From a bacterium (GTDB taxonomy: Bacteria; UBA8248), in contig OZ242260.1 in NCBI GenBank assembly GCA_965207065.1, positions 800,001-864,000 on the forward strand: a stretch of 64,000 bases of DNA, written 5' to 3'. The position numbers were made by a program, and so were the translations under genes. Below the pieces are notes generated by a model. That model was not told the DNA's origin and made no database searches. It saw only the letters and a list, made by a program, of their open reading frames with translations. Shown piece by piece: positions 28,047 to 37,735 of this stretch. Every line of letters begins with the position of its first letter. Positions within the stretch are counted from its first letter, which is position 1.

Positions 28047-29075
28047 ATGATCCGCGACGACGTATTCGTATTCGACAACGTGGTGCACATGTACGACTAC
28101 TCGGATGAGAACCTCGTCTCGGAGCAAAGCGAATACGACCGCCACTACCACGTGAGCAAGGTGCTGCGCCGTAGGCGAACCGCGCCCACGGACGTCTACG
28201 CGAACTGGCACCCGGTGGAGGGCTTCAAGCGCCGCTGGAGCGTGGAGGACATGGGCCGCCTCGTTTTCGAGGATTCGGGCACCGACATGGCGATGGCCCA
28301 GGCCGTACCCCTGTTCGACCTGTATAAAGACGGCTTCGCGCCCGTGAAGGCGCAGTACGCCTTCGCGCAGGCCTATCCCGAACGCTGCCTGTTCTGCGGG
28401 GCCGTGGACCCCATGTACCCCAGCGTGGCTGCAGCGTGCGAGGAGATGGAGCGCCAGGTGAAAGAGTGGGGAGCGAAATCCATGAAAATCTACAACGCCC
28501 ACGTGGACGGGAAATCCTGGGCGTGCGACGACCCCGAAATCGCCTACCCCCTCTATGAGAAAGGGCGCGAACTCGGCATCGAGGTATTCCAGTTCCACAA
28601 GGGAAACCCCATCACGCGGGCGAAGCTGCGCGACTTATCGCCGCTCGACATCGAGGGCGCGGCCCTCGATTTTCCCGATCTGCTCTTCGGCATCCACCAC
28701 CTGGCGGTGCCCTACTTCGAGGAAGTCGTCTGGATGGCGAACCGCTACGAGAACGTCTTCCTCGTGCTCTCGGGCATCGGCCATACGCCCATGGTCGCGC
28801 CCAGGACCTTCACCGAGTGGATGGGCAGATTGTTGCGCGACGTGGGCTCCGAGAGAGTGCTCTGGGGTTCCGAGATGGCGCTTCTGGGGAACGCGAAGCC
28901 CGTTATCGAGTGGATATGGGAGATGGAAATCCCCGAATCCATGCAGGATGACTACGGCTATCCGCAGATCACCGAAGAGGACAAGCGCAACATTCTGGGC
29001 CTGAACCAGGCGCGCATCTTCGGCGTGGACGTGGAGGCCAAAAAGCAGGAACTCTGGAGCGGAGCGGCTCGATGA
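28047..29075 (+). CDS. Amidohydrolase-2 family TIM-barrel protein
   Basis: FDNVVH, YPLYEK...FHKG, FPDL..IHH, RVLWGSE and KRNILGLNQARIFG. Confidence 0.8.
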   Translation: MIRDDVFVFDNVVHMYDYSDENLVSEQSEYDRHYHVSKVLRRRRTAPTDVYANWHPVEGFKRRWSVEDMGRLVFEDSGTDMAMAQAVPLFDLYKDGFAPVKAQYAFAQAYPERCLFCGAVDPMYPSVAAACEEMERQVKEWGAKSMKIYNAHVDGKSWACDDPEIAYPLYEKGRELGIEVFQFHKGNPITRAKLRDLSPLDIEGAALDFPDLLFGIHHLAVPYFEEVVWMANRYENVFLVLSGIGHTPMVAPRTFTEWMGRLLRDVGSERVLWGSEMALLGNAKPVIEWIWEMEIPESMQDDYGYPQITEEDKRNILGLNQARIFGVDVEAKKQELWSGAAR

Positions 29076-29410
29076 ACGAGCACGACGCCCTCGTAACCGA
29101 CGTCCAGGACATTATCGAGACGCAGATTCGCCCGCTACTCAAGATTCACGGCGGGGGCATCACGCTCGATAGCGTGAGCGAAAAAGGCGAAGTATCGCTG
29201 CGCTTCGAGGGCGCGTGCCGCGGCTGCATGCTCAAGAGCGTCACCTACGCCCTGGGCGTGCGCCAGAAGCTCATGCAGCACCCCGGCGTCACGGACGTCG
29301 CGGTCGAGGGCGTCCGAATTTCGGATCACGCCATCAAACGGGTGGAGAAATTCTACTCCGGCTATTCGTTTTGGGTGGGGCAACCGCTCAAAGACCAATC
29401 ATCGTCTTGA
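29072..29410 (+). CDS. NifU C-terminal (Nfu) domain protein
   Basis: IRPLLKIHGGGI...FEGACRGC (Nfu CxxC); ATGA overlap with the upstream gene. Confidence 0.85.
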   Translation: MNEHDALVTDVQDIIETQIRPLLKIHGGGITLDSVSEKGEVSLRFEGACRGCMLKSVTYALGVRQKLMQHPGVTDVAVEGVRISDHAIKRVEKFYSGYSFWVGQPLKDQSSS

Positions 29411-29427
29411 TCGCATCGCGCTACCAG

Positions 29428-30696
29428 ATGAGCAAAGAACTGCGCCTGTGGTACGGATGGGTGATCCTCCTCAGTGTCTTCATGATCCTGACGGTGACCA
29501 TCGGCATCAGAAACTCCATCGGCGTTTTCTTCAAGGACATCTCTGGCGAGTTCGGCTGGAACCGCGCGGAGACAGCCGCCGCCTTCACCATGGGCATGCT
29601 CGGCCAGGCGATGGTCGCCCCCTTCGCGGGCTGGGTGCTCGAGCGTTTCAACATGCGCTGGGTGATCGGCGCAGGCATCCTCGTGAACGGAGCGGCGCTC
29701 ATCATCGGAGCCTATATCGGCGCCCTCTGGCAATTCTACGCCATGTATTTTCTGCTATCGGTCGGCTTCGCCTTCACGGCCAACCTGCCGCAGGTGCAAC
29801 TGCTCTCGAACTGGTTCGTCTTGAAGCGCGGCCTCGCCATGGGGTTTTCGCACGCAGCCCAGGGCTTCGCGCCCATCGTGAACATCTTCACCCCCCTGCT
29901 CATCGCGGCACTCGGCTGGCGGGGGAGCTATCTCGCGCTGGCGGGAATCGTGCTCCTCCTCGTGCTGCCCTTCGCCGTGACGACGCTGCGCGACCACCCC
30001 AGAGAGAAGCGAACCGCTCCCGACGCGCCTTTTCTCACGTCTGAGGAGTTCTCCCGCGCCCGCGCCAGGGCCGCCGTTATCATTCCTGCAGATAAAGAAA
30101 CGGAAACTGTATCCTTTACTTTTTTCTTCACCCGCAGGTTCATGCTGATCGGAGGAATATACGGCAGCATCGCGTATGTCTTCACCGCCGTTCTGGTGCA
30201 TTTGATCCCCCACGCGACGGACCAGGGCTTCTCTCCCTCGGGGGGCGCCGCGCTCTTCGCCCTTTACGGGGCGGCCCTCGTCGTGGGAAACGGGCTGAGC
30301 GCGATTTCGGATCGCATCGGGAGGCTCCCCACCTACATGGTGGGCGTGGTGTGCGGCGTGGCCGCGAGTTATCTCCTGGCCGCCTTCACGCGCGCATCGC
30401 ACGAGTGGCTGATATACGCGGGCGCGATGGGGGTGGGTTTCGCCCTGGGTTTCGTCCGCCCCACGGCGTCCTCTCTGTTGGCGGATCATTTCGCGGGGCC
30501 GGGATTCGGTCTCGTGAACGGGTGCGCAATGATGGTCTTCTCGCTCATTGGCGCACTCGGCCCCCTCGTGACGGGGATGCTTTTCGACGCCAGCGGAAAC
30601 TATTATTCGGGTTTTCTCCTCGTGGGCGGCATGTTCATCGTTGGCGCGATTTTCGTCGTGAGCCTCTCGCGTATGCCGCGCGAAGAGCGCGCTTAG
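29428..30696 (+). CDS. MFS transporter
   Basis: About 12 TM; WYGWVIL, EFGWNRA, NWFVLKRGLAMG and SDRIGR. Confidence 0.9.
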   Translation: MSKELRLWYGWVILLSVFMILTVTIGIRNSIGVFFKDISGEFGWNRAETAAAFTMGMLGQAMVAPFAGWVLERFNMRWVIGAGILVNGAALIIGAYIGALWQFYAMYFLLSVGFAFTANLPQVQLLSNWFVLKRGLAMGFSHAAQGFAPIVNIFTPLLIAALGWRGSYLALAGIVLLLVLPFAVTTLRDHPREKRTAPDAPFLTSEEFSRARARAAVIIPADKETETVSFTFFFTRRFMLIGGIYGSIAYVFTAVLVHLIPHATDQGFSPSGGAALFALYGAALVVGNGLSAISDRIGRLPTYMVGVVCGVAASYLLAAFTRASHEWLIYAGAMGVGFALGFVRPTASSLLADHFAGPGFGLVNGCAMMVFSLIGALGPLVTGMLFDASGNYYSGFLLVGGMFIVGAIFVVSLSRMPREERA

Positions 30697-30700
30697 GACC

Positions 30701-31969
30701 ATGAACGTCATGCGGGACGAATCGCGCCTCTGGTACGGCTGGGTGGTGCTGGCCGTGGTCTTTCTCGTCATGATTTCGCTCATCGCCATTCGCGCCACCA
30801 TCGGGCCCTTCTTCAAGGAAATCTCGGGTGAGCTGGGCTGGAGCCGGGGGGCGACGGCGGCGGCTTTTTCCATCGGCATGCTGGCCCAGGCGATCATCTC
30901 GCCGCTGGCGGGCATCTTTTCCGACCGCTGGAGCATACGGGCGTCGATGTCGGCGGGGGTCGTGGTATTCGGCCTCTCGCTTCTCATCGGGAGCCAAATC
31001 TCCTCGCTCTGGCATTTTTATCTGATGTACATCGGCCTGTGCGCAGGCTTCGCCGCGAGCACTTGGATCGCCCAGGTGCCCACGCTCTCGAACTGGTTCG
31101 TGATAAAAAGAGGGCTCGCCCTGGGCATTTCCAACACCTGCCAGGGAGGGGCCTTCTGCCTGAATATAGCGACTCCCTACCTCATCACGGCCCTGGGCTG
31201 GCGAATGAGCTATCTAGCGCTGGCGGGTGTAACCCTGCTCATCGTGCTCCCCGTCTGCATCATTTTTCACAGGGACCACCCATCGGACAAAGGCACCATC
31301 GCCGACGCTCCTTTCGTCCTGGAACTGCCGGAGGAGCAAACTCCGAAACCAGCGCCTCCATCCGCCGATGAGCCGCCGGTCTCCATGTACAACCTGCCGT
31401 TTTTCTTCTTCATGGGTTCGTTTCTGCCCATGGCGTACACCTTTGCGGGGATGCTCGTCCATCTGGTGCCACACGCCACGGATCAGGGCTTCTCGCTCGA
31501 AACCGCGAGCGTTCTGTTCGCCATCTGGGGCTTATGCCAGGTGGGAGCGAACCTCATCAGCCCGGTCTCGGACCGCCTTGGCCGGGTGCCGACGTTCCTC
31601 ATCGGCGTGGTTCTCGGGATCGCCTCCGTCCTGGTTCTGGCCAACTTCGAGCAGGGCGACCCCCAAATCCGCTTCTACCTGGGCACGATCGCCAATGGTC
31701 TCGCCCTGGGGCTCATGCGGCCTACCGGCTCGGCCATCCTGGCGGATTATTTCGAAGGCCCGGGCTTCGGGCGCGTGAACGGCGTAGCGATGATGGGCTT
31801 CGCCCTCTGGGGTTCGGCAGGGCCATGGACCACGGGTTTCCTCTTCGACCTGCACGGCTCCTACCTTTGGGGACTTTCGGCCTTCGCGCTCATGTTTTTC
31901 CTCTGCGGCTTCTTTGTCGTGTTGCTCGGCTGGGTGAAAAGAGATAAGAGAGGGGCGTCTCCAGCCTGA
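30701..31969 (+). CDS. MFS transporter (paralog of the upstream gene)
   Basis: WYGWVVL, ELGWSRG, NWFVIKRGLALG and SDRLGR; shares HL.PHATDQGFS with the upstream MFS. Confidence 0.9.
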   Translation: MNVMRDESRLWYGWVVLAVVFLVMISLIAIRATIGPFFKEISGELGWSRGATAAAFSIGMLAQAIISPLAGIFSDRWSIRASMSAGVVVFGLSLLIGSQISSLWHFYLMYIGLCAGFAASTWIAQVPTLSNWFVIKRGLALGISNTCQGGAFCLNIATPYLITALGWRMSYLALAGVTLLIVLPVCIIFHRDHPSDKGTIADAPFVLELPEEQTPKPAPPSADEPPVSMYNLPFFFFMGSFLPMAYTFAGMLVHLVPHATDQGFSLETASVLFAIWGLCQVGANLISPVSDRLGRVPTFLIGVVLGIASVLVLANFEQGDPQIRFYLGTIANGLALGLMRPTGSAILADYFEGPGFGRVNGVAMMGFALWGSAGPWTTGFLFDLHGSYLWGLSAFALMFFLCGFFVVLLGWVKRDKRGASPA

Positions 31970-31998
31970 ATCATGGAACCCCGAATTCGAGGATACGC

Positions 31999-32904
31999 AT
32001 GCCGATAGAAAAAGTAGATGGGTTCTATTTTCACCCCACCTCGCGCGATCGCGTACTGGCGCAGCGCCACGCGGACCCGGCCAAAACGCCCTGGACGCCG
32101 TTGGACAAGCCACTGGCAGAGTGCAAGGTCACCCTGGTATCAACGGCAGGCATCTTCATGAAGAACGACGTTTCTTTCGATTACGAAAGAGAGCACCGCG
32201 AGGGCACCTGGGGCGACCCCACCCACCGGGAGATTCCCAAGACGGCGGGCCAGCACGACGTGGAATATTCCCATCTGCACGTCGACACTTCGTTCTTGGC
32301 CCAAGACAGGAACGTGTCCTGGCCGGTCGATATTTTCCTGGAATTCGAAAGAGAGGGGAAAATCGGCGCGCTGGCCGATACGCTCTATTCCATCATGGGC
32401 TACATCCCGAACTTCAACCCGCTGGTGAAGCGCACGGCGCCCCTGATGATCGAGAAAATGAAAGAAGAAGGAGTCGACGCGGCCTTCCTCTATCCGGTCT
32501 GACCCTTGTGCAACCGGTCCGGCGGACTGCTTCAGCGTGAAATCGAAAAGGCGGGGATCGCCACCGTCATCATCTCCAACGTGCCCGAGACCACCGAGCG
32601 CGTCTGCGTGCCCAGGGCGGTGTTCGTCCAGTACCCCTTCGGGCGGCAACTGGGCGTCGTGGGCGATTACGAGGGACAGCGCCGGATTTGCGAGGACATG
32701 GCGGCGCTGCTCGAAGAAGCAAAAGCGCCCAACGCCTACCGGCACCTGCCGTATGAATGGCCCGAACCGCCGGAGACCACCAAATGGCGTCCGGACGTGC
32801 CGCCGCCCATCTTCACCGTCCGGCAGGCCAAAGAGGGTGGACACAATCTGCTGGATGACTTCAAGGACGAAGAGCGCGCCGCGTATACCGATGCAGAGCG
32901 TTAG
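31999..32904 (+). CDS. GrdB/PrdB-like (glycine/proline reductase selenoprotein B family) selenoprotein, Sec at TGA 32500-32502
   Basis: PWTPLDKPLAECKVTLVSTAG...H.H.D....DRN..WP then LYPV-TGA-PLCNRSGGLLQREIEKAGIATV..PRAVFVQYPFGRQLG all in one frame; 301 aa with UxxC. Confidence 0.85.
32510..32530 (+). promoter_or_regulatory. Putative bacterial SECIS element
   Basis: Hairpin CGGTCC-GGC-GGACTG (32515-32529), G-starting apical loop about 18 nt after the in-frame TGA. Confidence 0.6.
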
Positions 32905-34442: not shown

Positions 34443-35207
34443 TCAGGTGGCCTGCTCCGACGCCTGCATCGCTTCTTCGAGTTGTTCCGGCGTCAGGGGA
34501 TCGCCCACGCCGATCATCGAATCGCGCGTCACGAGCTGGAAGAGTTGCGCTTCGTTCCAGTCCTCGGTTCCCGCCGGACGCTGGGGGATGATGAGATAGC
34601 GGCAATCCGCGTTCGAGTCGATGACGATGAGCTCCACGTCATCGGGCGCATCGAAGCCCATGTCCTTCAAGGTTCCCCTCGGGTCCGACACGGCCTTCGA
34701 GCGATAGGGGAAACTCTTGTACCAGGTGGGGGGCTGGCCGAGGATTTGCCTCGGGTAGCACGAACACAGCGTGCACACCACCATGTAGCGGGTCGTGTCG
34801 GTATTCTCGAGAGCCACCACGCGGTTGATGCCCGTGGTGTCGACCCCCATCTCGCCGCAGGCGGCGTCCGCGTCCGCAAGGAGCCTCTCCTTGAAGCCCT
34901 CATCCACCCATGCGCGCGCGATGATGCGCGAACCGATGGCGGGGCTCTGGCCATAAATCTCCTCCACCGCGCGTCTCATCTCGTCGGTCGTGAGAAGGCC
35001 CTTCTCTCTGAGGACGTTCATCAGGGCCATCATGCGCACCTGGTAGTAGTCCAGATCGTGCTCGACCTGGGTCACGGCTCCTTCGCGGTAGGCGTCGTCG
35101 GACTGCATCCGCGCGTTGTGCGCCCCAGGGTCCTGGCTGTAGGTGTGGGGATGGTCGCCGTGATGGTGAACATGTCCGCCGTTGTGGTGATCGTGTGAGT
35201 GCGCCAT
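34443..35207 (-). CDS. Cobalt-type nitrile hydratase alpha / thiocyanate hydrolase gamma-like subunit
   Basis: VVCTLCSCYP metal motif (Thr/Tyr = Co type), ARAWVD..FK.RLL, WYKS..YR and VTRDSMIGVG; His-rich N-terminus. Confidence 0.9.
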   Translation of the reverse strand: MAHSHDHHNGGHVHHHGDHPHTYSQDPGAHNARMQSDDAYREGAVTQVEHDLDYYQVRMMALMNVLREKGLLTTDEMRRAVEEIYGQSPAIGSRIIARAWVDEGFKERLLADADAACGEMGVDTTGINRVVALENTDTTRYMVVCTLCSCYPRQILGQPPTWYKSFPYRSKAVSDPRGTLKDMGFDAPDDVELIVIDSNADCRYLIIPQRPAGTEDWNEAQLFQLVTRDSMIGVGDPLTPEQLEEAMQASEQAT

Positions 35208-35245
35208 GGTGTGCTCCTCGCTCACGGGGGAACCGGTGGATTCGC

Positions 35246-35533
35246 CTAGACCGGCTCCAGCCAATGTTCATATATTTCGATATAGAGTTTGTCCTGTTTT
35301 TTCCCCGCCTCGTGATCCCAGAGATCGTTGATTTCGAACTCCACCCAGTAGAGTTCCCTGAGCGGCAGGCCGTCGCCGCCGTAGGCGAGATTCTCGGGGT
35401 TTTTGTATTTGCCGAAATAACGGTTGACGACGCCCGTCTTTCCCTTCACGAAATAAGTCGTCCGGTGGTGGCCGTCGGGGTACATCTCCTTGATGCGAAC
35501 CCTGTCGCCCACGCGGTAGCGGGTTTCCTCCAT
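35246..35533 (-). CDS. Nitrile hydratase beta C-terminal SH3-like domain protein (ScnA-like)
   Basis: RYRVGDRVRI....PDGHHRT..FVKGKTGVV, LY.VEF..DLW and EIYEHWLEP. Confidence 0.88.
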   Translation of the reverse strand: MEETRYRVGDRVRIKEMYPDGHHRTTYFVKGKTGVVNRYFGKYKNPENLAYGGDGLPLRELYWVEFEINDLWDHEAGKKQDKLYIEIYEHWLEPV

Positions 35534-35616: not shown

Positions 35617-36633
35617 CTACTTCGCAAGTCCGTACACGCGCCTGGCATTCGTAGTGAGAATCATCTCCTGCTCCGCTTCCGAGAGGCGGTTCAGGCCCGG
35701 AATATCCCGCGCGGGCTGGTGATAGCCCATGTCCGCCGGATAGTCCGTGCCGTAGAGAATCCGCTCCGCCCCAAGCGTCTTCGCCGCGAACTCGAAGCAA
35801 TCCGCGTTGTGGATGATGGTGTCGTAATAGAAACGACCGAAATACTGCTCGGGGTCCTTCGCTCCGTGGACCTTGGGTTCCCTACGCTCGCCGTAGCCGT
35901 GCTGCCAGCGGCCCCGGATCCAGGGCACGAAGCCGCCCACGTGGGAGAGATAGAATTTCAGTTCCGGGAACCTGTCCATTACGCCGCCGAAGATGAGGCA
36001 CGCCACCGCAACCGTGGTGTCGAGCGGGTTTCCGATAAAATTCCTCAAGTAGAAATCCTGGAGGCGATCTCCACCGCCCAGCACGTTCGTGGGGTGCACG
36101 AACACAGGCATGTCGAGCGCCTCCGCCTTGGCCCAGAATACGTCCAGACCCGGATCGTCGAGGTTTTTTCCCGCCACGTTCGAGGCGATCATCACGCCGA
36201 GGTGGCCGTTCGCGCTTGCGCGCTCGAGTTCCGCCGCCGCAGCTTCCGGGTCCTGGAGGGGCACCGTGGCCATGCAGGAGAATTTATCGGGATACTCCCC
36301 CGCCAGCGCGCTCAGGCCGTCGTTCAGCGAAGCGGCCAACTCCTTGTTCGCTTCCGCCTCCAATGTATAGAGCGTCATGGCCGGGCCGATGGAGAGCACC
36401 TGATGCGCGACGCCCATCCGCTCCATGTCAGCGAAGCGCGGCTCAAGCTCATAATAAAGGGGCGTGAGCTTATTCCTGAGTTCCGAATCGCGCCCCAGAA
36501 CCTTTCCGCGCGTAATGAGCCACTCGCCGTGTTCGTCAGTTTCTATCGACGCCGTGCGGCCGAAGCGGCCCGCGCGCACGTCCGCGATGAACTGCCCGGG
36601 ATAGATATGTGTATGGGGGTCGATCGCCGTCAT
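35617..36633 (-). CDS. Amidohydrolase-2 family (ACMSD/decarboxylase-hydratase-like)
   Basis: IDPHTH, VPLQDPEAAAAELER, VFVHP, SHVGG and LYGTDYP. Confidence 0.88.
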   Translation of the reverse strand: MTAIDPHTHIYPGQFIADVRAGRFGRTASIETDEHGEWLITRGKVLGRDSELRNKLTPLYYELEPRFADMERMGVAHQVLSIGPAMTLYTLEAEANKELAASLNDGLSALAGEYPDKFSCMATVPLQDPEAAAAELERASANGHLGVMIASNVAGKNLDDPGLDVFWAKAEALDMPVFVHPTNVLGGGDRLQDFYLRNFIGNPLDTTVAVACLIFGGVMDRFPELKFYLSHVGGFVPWIRGRWQHGYGERREPKVHGAKDPEQYFGRFYYDTIIHNADCFEFAAKTLGAERILYGTDYPADMGYHQPARDIPGLNRLSEAEQEMILTTNARRVYGLAK

Positions 36634-36718
36634 CTTTTTCTCTATCTTCTGCCGGGGGGAGGCCCTCCCGGGCCCCCTCACCGCACGTGAATCGAGTCGT
36701 ATTCGCCGCCGCTGGCTT

Positions 36719-37735
36719 TTACACGTCCAGCTTGTAGAGCTTCTTCACGTTTCCGTAGAGCATCTGTTCCTGCTCATCCGCCGAGAAGCGCGAAAGCCCC
36801 GGAATCTCCTTCGCCCCGGCCAGATAGCCCATGTCGAAGGGATAGTCCGTACCGTAGAGAATCTTGTCCACGCCGAGCGTTTTCACGGCGAACTCGAAGG
36901 AATCCGCGTTGTGGATGATGGTGTCGTAATAAATTTTTCCGAAATACTGTTCGGGGTCTTTTGCGCCGTGCACCTTGGGTTCCCTGCGCTCGCCGTAGCC
37001 GTGCTGCCAGCGGCCCCGGATCCAGGGAACGAAACCGCCCACGTGCGAGACCAGGAACTTGATGTTCGGGAAGCGATCGAACACGCCGCCGAAGATGAGA
37101 CAGGCGATGGATATCGTCGTGTCGAGCGGGTTGCCGATGAAGTTCCTCAGGTAATAGTCCTTGAGCCGGTCGTTGACGCCGATGACGTCCACCGGGTGAA
37201 TGAAAATCGGCACGTCGTGCTCACACGCCTTGGCCCAGACGACGTCGAGCGCGGGGTCATCGAGATTATTTCCCGCGATGTTCGAGCCGATCTGACAACC
37301 CAGGTGGCCGTTTTTCACCGCGCGGTCGAGTTCCGCCGCCGCGGCTTCGGGGTCCTGGAGCGGAATCTGCGCCATGCACAGGAAACGCTCGGGGTGTTCT
37401 TTCGTGAGCGCGGTCAGCGCATCGTTCAGCGATGCGGAGAGTTCCCTGTTCAGGCCTGCGTCGAGCGCATAGTGCGTCATCGGCGGAACGACGGAGAGAA
37501 TCTGAATGTCCACGTTCTGGTTGTTGTCCATGTCGCTCAGGCGCATCTCGACGTCATAGGTTTCTTTCGGCAGCGGGTTCTTGTGAATCCGCTCCTCGCC
37601 GAGAACGGTGTTTTTCGTGACGAGCAGTTCCCACGGGTCGCCCGCTTCGATGGTGACGGCGTCGCCGAAACGGCCCTGGCGTACGTCTTCGATGAAACTC
37701 TCGGGAGCGATGTGGGCATGAGGGTCGATGATCAC
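36719..37735 (-). CDS. Amidohydrolase-2 family (ACMSD-like), paralog of the adjacent gene
   Basis: IDPHAH, IPLQDPEAAAAELDR, IFIHP, SHVGG and LYGTDYPFDM. Confidence 0.88.
   Translation of the reverse strand: MIIDPHAHIAPESFIEDVRQGRFGDAVTIEAGDPWELLVTKNTVLGEERIHKNPLPKETYDVEMRLSDMDNNQNVDIQILSVVPPMTHYALDAGLNRELSASLNDALTALTKEHPERFLCMAQIPLQDPEAAAAELDRAVKNGHLGCQIGSNIAGNNLDDPALDVVWAKACEHDVPIFIHPVDVIGVNDRLKDYYLRNFIGNPLDTTISIACLIFGGVFDRFPNIKFLVSHVGGFVPWIRGRWQHGYGERREPKVHGAKDPEQYFGKIYYDTIIHNADSFEFAVKTLGVDKILYGTDYPFDMGYLAGAKEIPGLSRFSADEQEQMLYGNVKKLYKLDV

Follow-up and report, generated by a model that had tools for sequence, protein, structure and literature searches.

A stand-alone PrdB-like gene in a UBA8248 bacterium, probably read through an in-frame TGA as selenocysteine

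A 64,000-nucleotide stretch of bacterial DNA, called the window below (contig OZ242260.1 of assembly GCA_965207065.1, GTDB lineage UBA8248, positions 800,001 to 864,000), very probably holds at 31999-32904 on its forward strand a single gene for a 301-residue selenoprotein. Judged from its sequence, the protein is a member of the GrdB/PrdB ("selenoprotein B") superfamily, within which it falls into a branch of stand-alone PrdB-like proteins. Positions are those of the whole window unless a contig prefix is given, and residue 168 is the in-frame TGA read as selenocysteine (Sec, U). The initial annotation had described two open reading frames (ORFs) in one frame with only TGA-CCC between them, and the sequence and its translation confirmed this layout. 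The gene starts with the ATG at 31999, 5 nt after a Shine-Dalgarno-like GAGGA (31989-31993) found by inspection, and runs through 167 codons to the TGA at 32500-32502. It continues with 133 codons beginning CCC TTG TGC, of which the CCC lies at 32503-32505 and the rest belongs to an ORF listed as 32506-32904 that shares the frame of ORF 31999-32502, and it ends in the TAG at 32902-32904, giving 301 residues with TGA translated as U168. The peptide around this residue is AAFLYPV-U-PLC-NRSGG, in which U168 would be the first residue of a U-P-L-C motif. The TGC at 32509-32511 encodes Cys171, by its conservation the likely resolving cysteine of the UxxC motif: C171 is invariant in one alignment of the family (A2) and is kept in at least 90% of the rows in two others (A3 and A4).

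The family was assigned with profile models. Residues 33-164, and only these, match the Pfam model GRDB (PF07355) with 37.8 bits against a gathering threshold of 22, and the best NCBIfam match is the PrdB model TIGR04483, with 132.1 bits, an E-value of 2.1e-38 and model positions 18-234 of 238 (217 covered). TIGR01918 (glycine/betaine/sarcosine/D-proline family reductase selenoprotein B) matches with 53 bits, below its cut-off of 65.45. These matches bear out the earlier description of the gene as GrdB/PrdB-like as far as the superfamily is concerned, with PrdB as the closest member. It is not a PrdB or GrdB catalytic subunit of a known reductase complex, because the TIGR04483 equivalog cut-off of 300 is not reached and the genome has no PrdA. 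By sequence, the protein is best described as PrdB-like and closest to PrdB, yet not as a PrdB equivalog.

The genome, 4.48 Mb in one contig (C1), has four genes of the superfamily: the one studied here, two further orphans and one genuine GrdB. One orphan paralog, at C1:1874086-1874961 (+), is 68% identical to the studied protein and scores 118 bits to PrdB; the other, at C1:1074556-1075248 (-), is 42% identical and scores 164 bits; each has one TGA, at the same column. The genuine GrdB scores 416 bits to TIGR01918 and lies beside GrdA and GrdE in a grd cluster that lies outside the window, 2.26 Mb from the studied gene, at G000:C1 ~3089286-3096325 (L105:3286-10325). A search of the whole genome for PF09338 (GrdE/PrdA) found a single match, the GrdE of this cluster, and the genome is thus without PrdA. 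No PrdA- or GrdE-type gene was found next to the studied gene, its two paralogs or four distant homologs, at the seven loci inspected.

Two side observations concern these genes. The grd cluster has the order thiolase-like/DUF5940 protein, GrdA with an in-frame TGA, GrdE (PF09338) and GrdB with an in-frame TGA; grdE and grdB are separated by two ORFs, one unknown and one with a PIN domain. Also, a genome of the same class carries a tandem pair of PrdB-like genes, at G032:C1:2444699-2446585 (L049 and L071).

It is very unlikely that the protein is a true PrdB, that is, the selenoprotein subunit of a D-proline reductase carrying out Stickland-type proline reduction. Such a reading would fit the best NCBIfam match and its near-complete coverage of the model, the name "D-proline reductase (dithiol) PrdB" that several homologs carry from the Joint Genome Institute (JGI), and the UxxC motif, which is the one tabulated for D-proline reductase in PMC13188914. 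However, the score is less than half of the equivalog cut-off and the protein is longer than the model by about 60 residues. Since the only PF09338 gene sits in the grd cluster and PrdA is missing, the protein does not seem to be part of a classical D-proline reductase.

The TGA at 32500-32502 is, on comparative grounds, best read as a selenocysteine codon. Forty-one related genomes, counting that of the window itself, were searched in six frames; 33 gave matches, and from the list of these a genomic alignment of 38 homologs was made, consisting of the 20 best orthologous matches and 18 more distant homologs or paralogs. The 20 best orthologous matches, which are 74-100% identical, all contain exactly one in-frame TGA. 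Over the whole alignment, down to 28% identity, the U168 column is TGA in 37 of 38 homologs, among them the GrdB of the genome's own grd cluster, and TGC (Cys) in the remaining one, L051. A protein search in a collection of 5.8 billion proteins listed 120 relatives; 108 of them span about half of the query, being fragments that stop at the TGA and mostly have 165-172 residues. Eleven of the listed relatives are full-length (254-309 residues, 37-43% identity), and 10 of these have Cys at the U168 column, in the motif CPLCC; a twelfth sequence, P0058, appears frameshifted. The expectation that homologs would show Cys or Sec opposite the TGA therefore held in both sets, and the half-length entries agree with the prediction that gene callers would split the gene.

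The part after the TGA is under strong purifying selection. Across seven ortholog pairs, the ratio of nonsynonymous to synonymous substitution rates (dN/dS) of codons 169-270 lies at about 0.05-0.14 and is not above that of codons 1-167, which argues that translation carries on past the TGA in the same frame. This evidence bears directly on the possibility that the TGA is a real stop, ending a 167-residue N-terminal protein that is perhaps accompanied by a separately started C-terminal protein of 132 residues from a split gene. Such is the gene callers' reading, as the stop at the TGA in 108 of the 120 listed relatives shows, and the ORF list does hold a TTG-started ORF at 32506. But in orthologs this TTG is replaced by CTC, CTG, CTT, ATT or GTC; it is not kept as a start, so a conserved restart is excluded, and there is no space for a ribosome-binding site in front of it. 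The Cys-containing homologs are continuous single proteins, the TGA stays at one column across paralogs as distant as 28% identity, and the predicted structure described below joins both halves in one domain. We consider a true stop at this position highly improbable.

Still less probable, to the point of being a slight chance, is a pseudogene or assembly error, with a nonsense change in a gene that formerly encoded Cys. A single-base change would turn TGC or TGT into TGA, and three genomes of the same genus have orthologs that look frameshifted. Against this stand the same TGA in 37 of 38 homologs from many genomes, the purifying selection downstream of it, with dN/dS not near 1, and the contigs of two other studies. 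These contigs span the whole gene with no indels, and the differences listed for them include no change at 32500-32502 (26 lesser differences lie beyond those listed).

A few observations weigh against reading the TGA as one half of a conserved redox pair in an intact gene. The full-length database homolog P0075 has Asn at the Sec/Cys column (N-L-V-C), and one genomic homolog, L053 (G039:C106), reads U-P-L-D, with Asp replacing the resolving Cys. In 3 of 22 other genomes of the same genus, the ortholog lies in two to three pieces in different frames (G004:C2:1211406-1212307, G008:C1:2068139-2069039 and G022:C1:320046-320947); these are either frameshifted pseudogenes or assembly indel errors.

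The genome has what is needed to insert selenocysteine. The initial annotation had named selA, selB, selC and selD as the genes to look for, and all four were found. The tRNA-Sec gene (selC) scores 75.9 bits, above the cut-off, and is called SeC with anticodon TCA by ARAGORN; SelB (386 bits), SelA (579 bits) and SelD (334 bits) each exceed their own cut-offs in the genome search. The selD gene itself, at C1:543537-544499 (-) (L019), contains one in-frame TGA, at C1:544472, in the context VKAGGUGSKLGP. TGA is otherwise an ordinary stop in this genome, since it closes 2366 open frames of 250 codons or more. Genome-wide recoding of TGA as an ordinary amino acid (e.g. Trp or Gly, NCBI tables 4 and 25), which has nothing in its favour beyond the open frame, is of negligible probability in the face of those 2366 stops, of SelA, SelB and most other searched genes without an internal TGA, of a column that aligns with Cys and not with Trp or Gly, and of a dedicated tRNA-Sec and SelB.

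With the TGA read as selenocysteine, the hairpin that follows it is most likely the selenocysteine insertion sequence (SECIS) element, that is, the site for SelB. The initial annotation had pointed to a hairpin CGGTCC-GGC-GGACTG with its loop about 18 nt after the TGA, and it is found exactly so: the core spans 32515-32529, with arms CGGTCC (32515-32520) and GGACTG (32524-32529) around the loop GGC (32521-32523), and forms six pairs including one G-U. Its stem starts 12 nt after the UGA, and its loop starts 18 nt past the last TGA base, or 21 nt counted from the U. That a SECIS-like hairpin stands just 3' of the UGA was also upheld by its conservation, which is visible in the RNAalifold consensus, in compensatory changes and at silent sites.

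The consensus fold was made on an alignment (A1) that takes in 36 homologs of the Sec type and reaches from 9 nt ahead of the TGA to 57 nt past it. RNAalifold, run unguided, paired columns 25-29 with 35-39, which are five of the six pairs first proposed. For a 9-pair version of the hairpin, the share of paired cells is 78.4%, and it drops to 15-55% once the 3' partner is shifted by 1-3 columns. Compensatory changes occur in four pairs of the hairpin, and the observed covariation score was reached by none of 500 shuffles, a count that is not a probability because the aligned sequences are related. Among the 20 orthologs, third-codon positions vary at 0 of 5 sites inside the hairpin and at 11 of 14 outside it (Fisher p = 0.005). 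Two other genes of the genome have a hairpin in the same place: its selD has GGGUCC-GGA-GGACCU after the TGA, a hairpin nearly identical to the one studied here, with the loop 20 nt from the U, and its GrdB has GCGCAGC-GGG-GCUGCGC, with the loop 21 nt from the U.

A lower stem extension at 32509-32534 is possible and only weakly indicated. Counting the U of the UGA as 0, it would consist of U9-A34, G10-C33, A12-U32 and A13-U31 with C/C mismatches, and it appears in minimum free energy (MFE) folds of several orthologs. A fold of 32507-32537 pairs the two outer bases and leaves the two A-U pairs open; the extension is partly kept in the family, with A-U in 16/36 and 27/36 rows.

Several results count against giving this hairpin much weight on its own. 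We defined a comparable hairpin as one of at least 6 bp with at least 3 G-C pairs, a loop of 3-5 nt with G in its first two bases, and a loop start 18-24 nt from the U. Such a hairpin follows 45 of the 2366 TGA stops of long ORFs (1.9%) and 403 of 20000 random TGA triplets in the genome (2.0%), so the bare pattern of TGA plus hairpin is not more than chance. The 19-nt core folds at -6.7 kcal/mol (z -1.29), but the z-score rises to +0.40 for 31 nt (-7.8 kcal/mol) and +1.03 for 71 nt, and the MFE fold of the 71 nt around the site lacks the proposed hairpin and is no more stable than shuffles. The sequences behind the covariation are related to one another and include only a few paralog lineages. 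Coding constraint accounts for part of the hairpin's nucleotide conservation, as the peptide RSGGL is conserved, and the invariant first G of the loop opens a Gly or Val codon. The absence of such a hairpin from Cys forms, which would favour a SECIS role, was seen in a single sequence, L051, the sole Cys-type homolog with DNA at hand. An Rfam scan of 32300-32800 with E-values up to 10 gave three weak and unrelated matches on the opposite strand and none for the hairpin. What raises the site above chance is the combination of the conserved TGA/Cys column, the purifying selection downstream of the TGA and the conservation of the hairpin.

A crude scan of the genome for an open frame, a TGA, a further open frame and a hairpin marked 211 places, most of which are noise in this GC-rich genome. 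Recurring selenoprotein-like motifs stand out among these places. A UGSC-type motif has at least eight copies (C1:435348, 1412192, 1437168, 1696031, 1901342, 2141451, 2469535 and 3965089), five sites are CxxU and AhpD-like (C1:235548, 571320, 1673393, 2851726 and 3675745), and two read GVGFULLTQL (C1:786753 and 2567638). Together they suggest that the genome is rich in selenoproteins. Related metagenome-assembled genomes (MAGs) named "Nitrospinota" (GTDB UBA8248) are listed in Table 2 of the BSepDB paper with 48-54 selenoprotein genes each, within the ten most selenoprotein-rich bacteria (PMC13326102). One homolog of the studied gene, L096 (73% identical), comes from an isolate listed in the same table among that top-ten set. 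The named close relatives of the gene are Nitrospinota or Nitrospinaceae MAGs, one of them in a sponge-labelled data set, and a literature search joining Nitrospin* and selenoprotein returned BSepDB only.

The structure of the full-length protein was predicted with AlphaFold2 (AF2) from 30 sequences, with a mean predicted local distance difference test score (pLDDT) of 91.1 and a predicted template modelling score (pTM) of 0.91. The model is confident to about residue 270 and low beyond, and shows an alpha/beta domain in which both halves around the TGA fall into one confident domain. Around the motif it has a strand at 161-165, U168, C171 and a helix at 171-184, with a pLDDT of 96-99 in that stretch. 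The UxxC would then sit between a beta-strand and the start of a helix, a position in which redox-active pairs of the CxxC type are usually found, as far as predicted geometry goes. The PDB gave no matches by sequence or by profile, and Foldseek found none in the PDB at E <= 0.001 (best E-value 0.017). A wide search with VIA-align gave a best Z of 8.5, to assorted Rossmann-like alpha/beta proteins and within the tool's stated background. With such generic Rossmann-like matches only, the structure adds nothing on function except where the motif sits.

A working mechanism can be proposed from the better-known members of the superfamily. SelB, bound to the hairpin, and Sec-tRNA(Sec) would decode the UGA at 32500-32502 as Sec. 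Sec168 and Cys171 would form the U-x-x-C redox pair, placed between the beta-strand and the helix start of the Rossmann-like alpha/beta domain. If the protein works as PrdB and GrdB do, the Sec168 selenol would attack the substrate, either on its own or bound to a partner; the adduct would be resolved by Cys171 into a Se-S bond, and a thiol system would re-reduce this bond. The selenol attack and Se-S chemistry of PrdB and GrdB are established biochemistry, as summarised in PMC13188914, and a redox mechanism with Sec168 and Cys171 is on this analogy the most likely one for the studied protein.

The neighbouring genes suggest what the substrate may be. The selenoprotein gene is the last of a same-strand run, all on the forward strand, and is followed by a convergent gene of a phosphodiesterase family. 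The run starts with an Amidohydro_2 gene (28047-29075), which is followed by a NifU C-terminal-domain protein (Nfu-like, 29072-29410; Pfam NifU, 58.5 bits) and two transporters of the major facilitator superfamily (MFS), both of the monocarboxylate/oxalate-formate type. The first of these transporters, at 29215-30696 (Pfam MFS_1 and NCBIfam), has an uncertain start, as its ORF overlaps the NifU-like gene; the second, at 30701-31969 (Pfam MFS_1), ends 30 nt upstream of the selenoprotein gene. Against the NCBIfam model SfMCT the two score 94-107 bits (107 for 30701-31969), below the cut-off of 320.

An MFS gene lies directly upstream of the ortholog in all 19 same-genus loci, and in 17 of the 19 the 3' end of the farther MFS gene, the one at 29215-30696 here, lies at the edge of the locus; in the other two, L042 and L043, a NifU-like gene precedes a single MFS gene. 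The adjoining MFS gene is probably in the same operon as the selenoprotein gene, while any tie between the NifU-like gene and the selenoprotein would be conjecture. In a metatranscriptomic library (run X20), one 193-nt contig with 2 mismatches covers 31855-32045, from the last part of the MFS gene into the first part of the selenoprotein gene, and is weakly compatible with their co-transcription; RNA contig cover of the gene region in this run is limited to those positions.

The two monocarboxylate-type MFS genes, found upstream throughout the genus, suggest an imported small organic acid as the class of substrate. This must be set against the two paralogs and four distant homologs, which have unrelated neighbours with nothing shared: an MDMPI_N/SCP2 protein stands at one paralog, and an amino-acid permease and an alpha/beta hydrolase stand at the other. 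The substrate assignment is weak because the MFS linkage is limited to one genus. We would offer only as a long shot the idea that the stand-alone PrdB-like selenoproteins, of which this genome has three, are self-sufficient and need no pyruvoyl partner, and that they carry out an undescribed type of selenol-dependent reductive cleavage, here of a small organic acid imported by the adjacent monocarboxylate-type MFS transporters. If true, it would place Stickland-like chemistry in marine or sponge-associated bacteria labelled Nitrospinota, outside the anaerobic fermenters.

Elsewhere in the window, 34443-35264 (-) encodes a nitrile-hydratase alpha-like protein (238 bits) with a sub-threshold match to a Frankia ribosomal-peptide family. 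Near it are three Amidohydro_2 genes: the one at 28047-29075 (+) and two more at 35617-36681 (-) and 36719-37735 (-).

The gene appears to be a real member of a selenoprotein family that has already been catalogued, and as such it is of low novelty and involves no new principle. Among the selenoprotein families of the Sargasso Sea, "Proline reductase PrdB, UxxC" ranked third in abundance in 2005, with 42 Sec forms and 1 Cys form (PMC1088965, Tables 1-3). In the Global Ocean Sampling (GOS) survey of 2008, the family was assigned to pfam07355 and is among the more frequent marine selenoproteins, with 235 Sec genes and 110 Cys homologs; it is filed as "proline reductase" (PMC2398784, Table 2). 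Outside the clostridia the family is listed too, for example in the genomes of Anaeromyxobacter and Geobacter (PMC1794560, Table 3). A literature search for PrdB-like selenoproteins under that name found nothing.

The initial annotation had called the selenoprotein "hidden", and for annotation pipelines it is, but the selenoprotein literature has had the family in its catalogues since 2005. In public protein collections the gene is present almost only as N-terminal stumps that break off at the Sec codon, so most databases lack its catalytic motif along with the entire C-terminal half. The label "proline reductase" is doubtful for this gene, because there is no PrdA and the gene lies apart from the genome's glycine-reductase cluster. 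What the finding offers is the repair of a truncation that recurs systematically in annotation, together with the question of the substrate.

The studied gene can be compared with four known systems. The first is PrdB (TIGR04483); D-proline reductase was reportedly described from Clostridium sticklandii by Kabisch et al. in 1999 (cited in PMC1088965), with PrdB as its selenoprotein subunit. The studied protein is homologous to PrdB over nearly the whole model, and both have Sec in a UxxC motif. It differs in being about 60 residues longer than the 238-position model, with a C-terminal extension at 255-301, and its gene adjoins MFS transporters and not prd genes, in a genome without PrdA.

The second comprises GrdB, GrdF and GrdH (TIGR01917 and TIGR01918), the substrate-specific selenoprotein B of the glycine, sarcosine and betaine reductases, which belong to the same superfamily. 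In the genome's own GrdB the TGA aligns with the studied Sec column, and the hairpin loop lies at the same distance from the UGA. However, the studied protein matches only the C-terminal half of GrdB (model positions 221-397 of ~431), and the genome's real GrdB sits beside GrdA and GrdE while the studied gene does not.

The third is the bacterial SECIS element, as found for example in selD genes. Like those elements, the studied hairpin lies directly 3' of the UGA, inside the coding region, and has a small loop that starts with G about 20 nt from the UGA. The "canonical SECIS" example in Table 1 of PMC13326102, from the selD of another bacterium, contains GGGUCC-GGC-GGACC, and the apical GGUCC-GGC-GGAC is common to the studied hairpin and this published example, with the selD of the present genome also counted. 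The studied hairpin differs in having only six contiguous pairs, at about -7 kcal/mol, and a broken and poorly conserved lower stem.

The fourth is the PrdB family of the marine catalogues, which combines PF07355 with UxxC, as the studied gene does, and comes from marine bacteria. The catalogue papers, in the tables that list the family, treat it as proline reductase (PMC1088965, PMC2398784), whereas the studied genome is without PrdA. Compared by description only, on Pfam model, motif, habitat and database names, the studied gene appears to belong to the same subfamily as the Sargasso Sea and GOS entries called "PrdB". In both settings the Sec forms outnumber the Cys forms: 42:1 in the Sargasso Sea and 235:110 in GOS (PMC1088965, PMC2398784), and 37:1 in the genomes aligned here.

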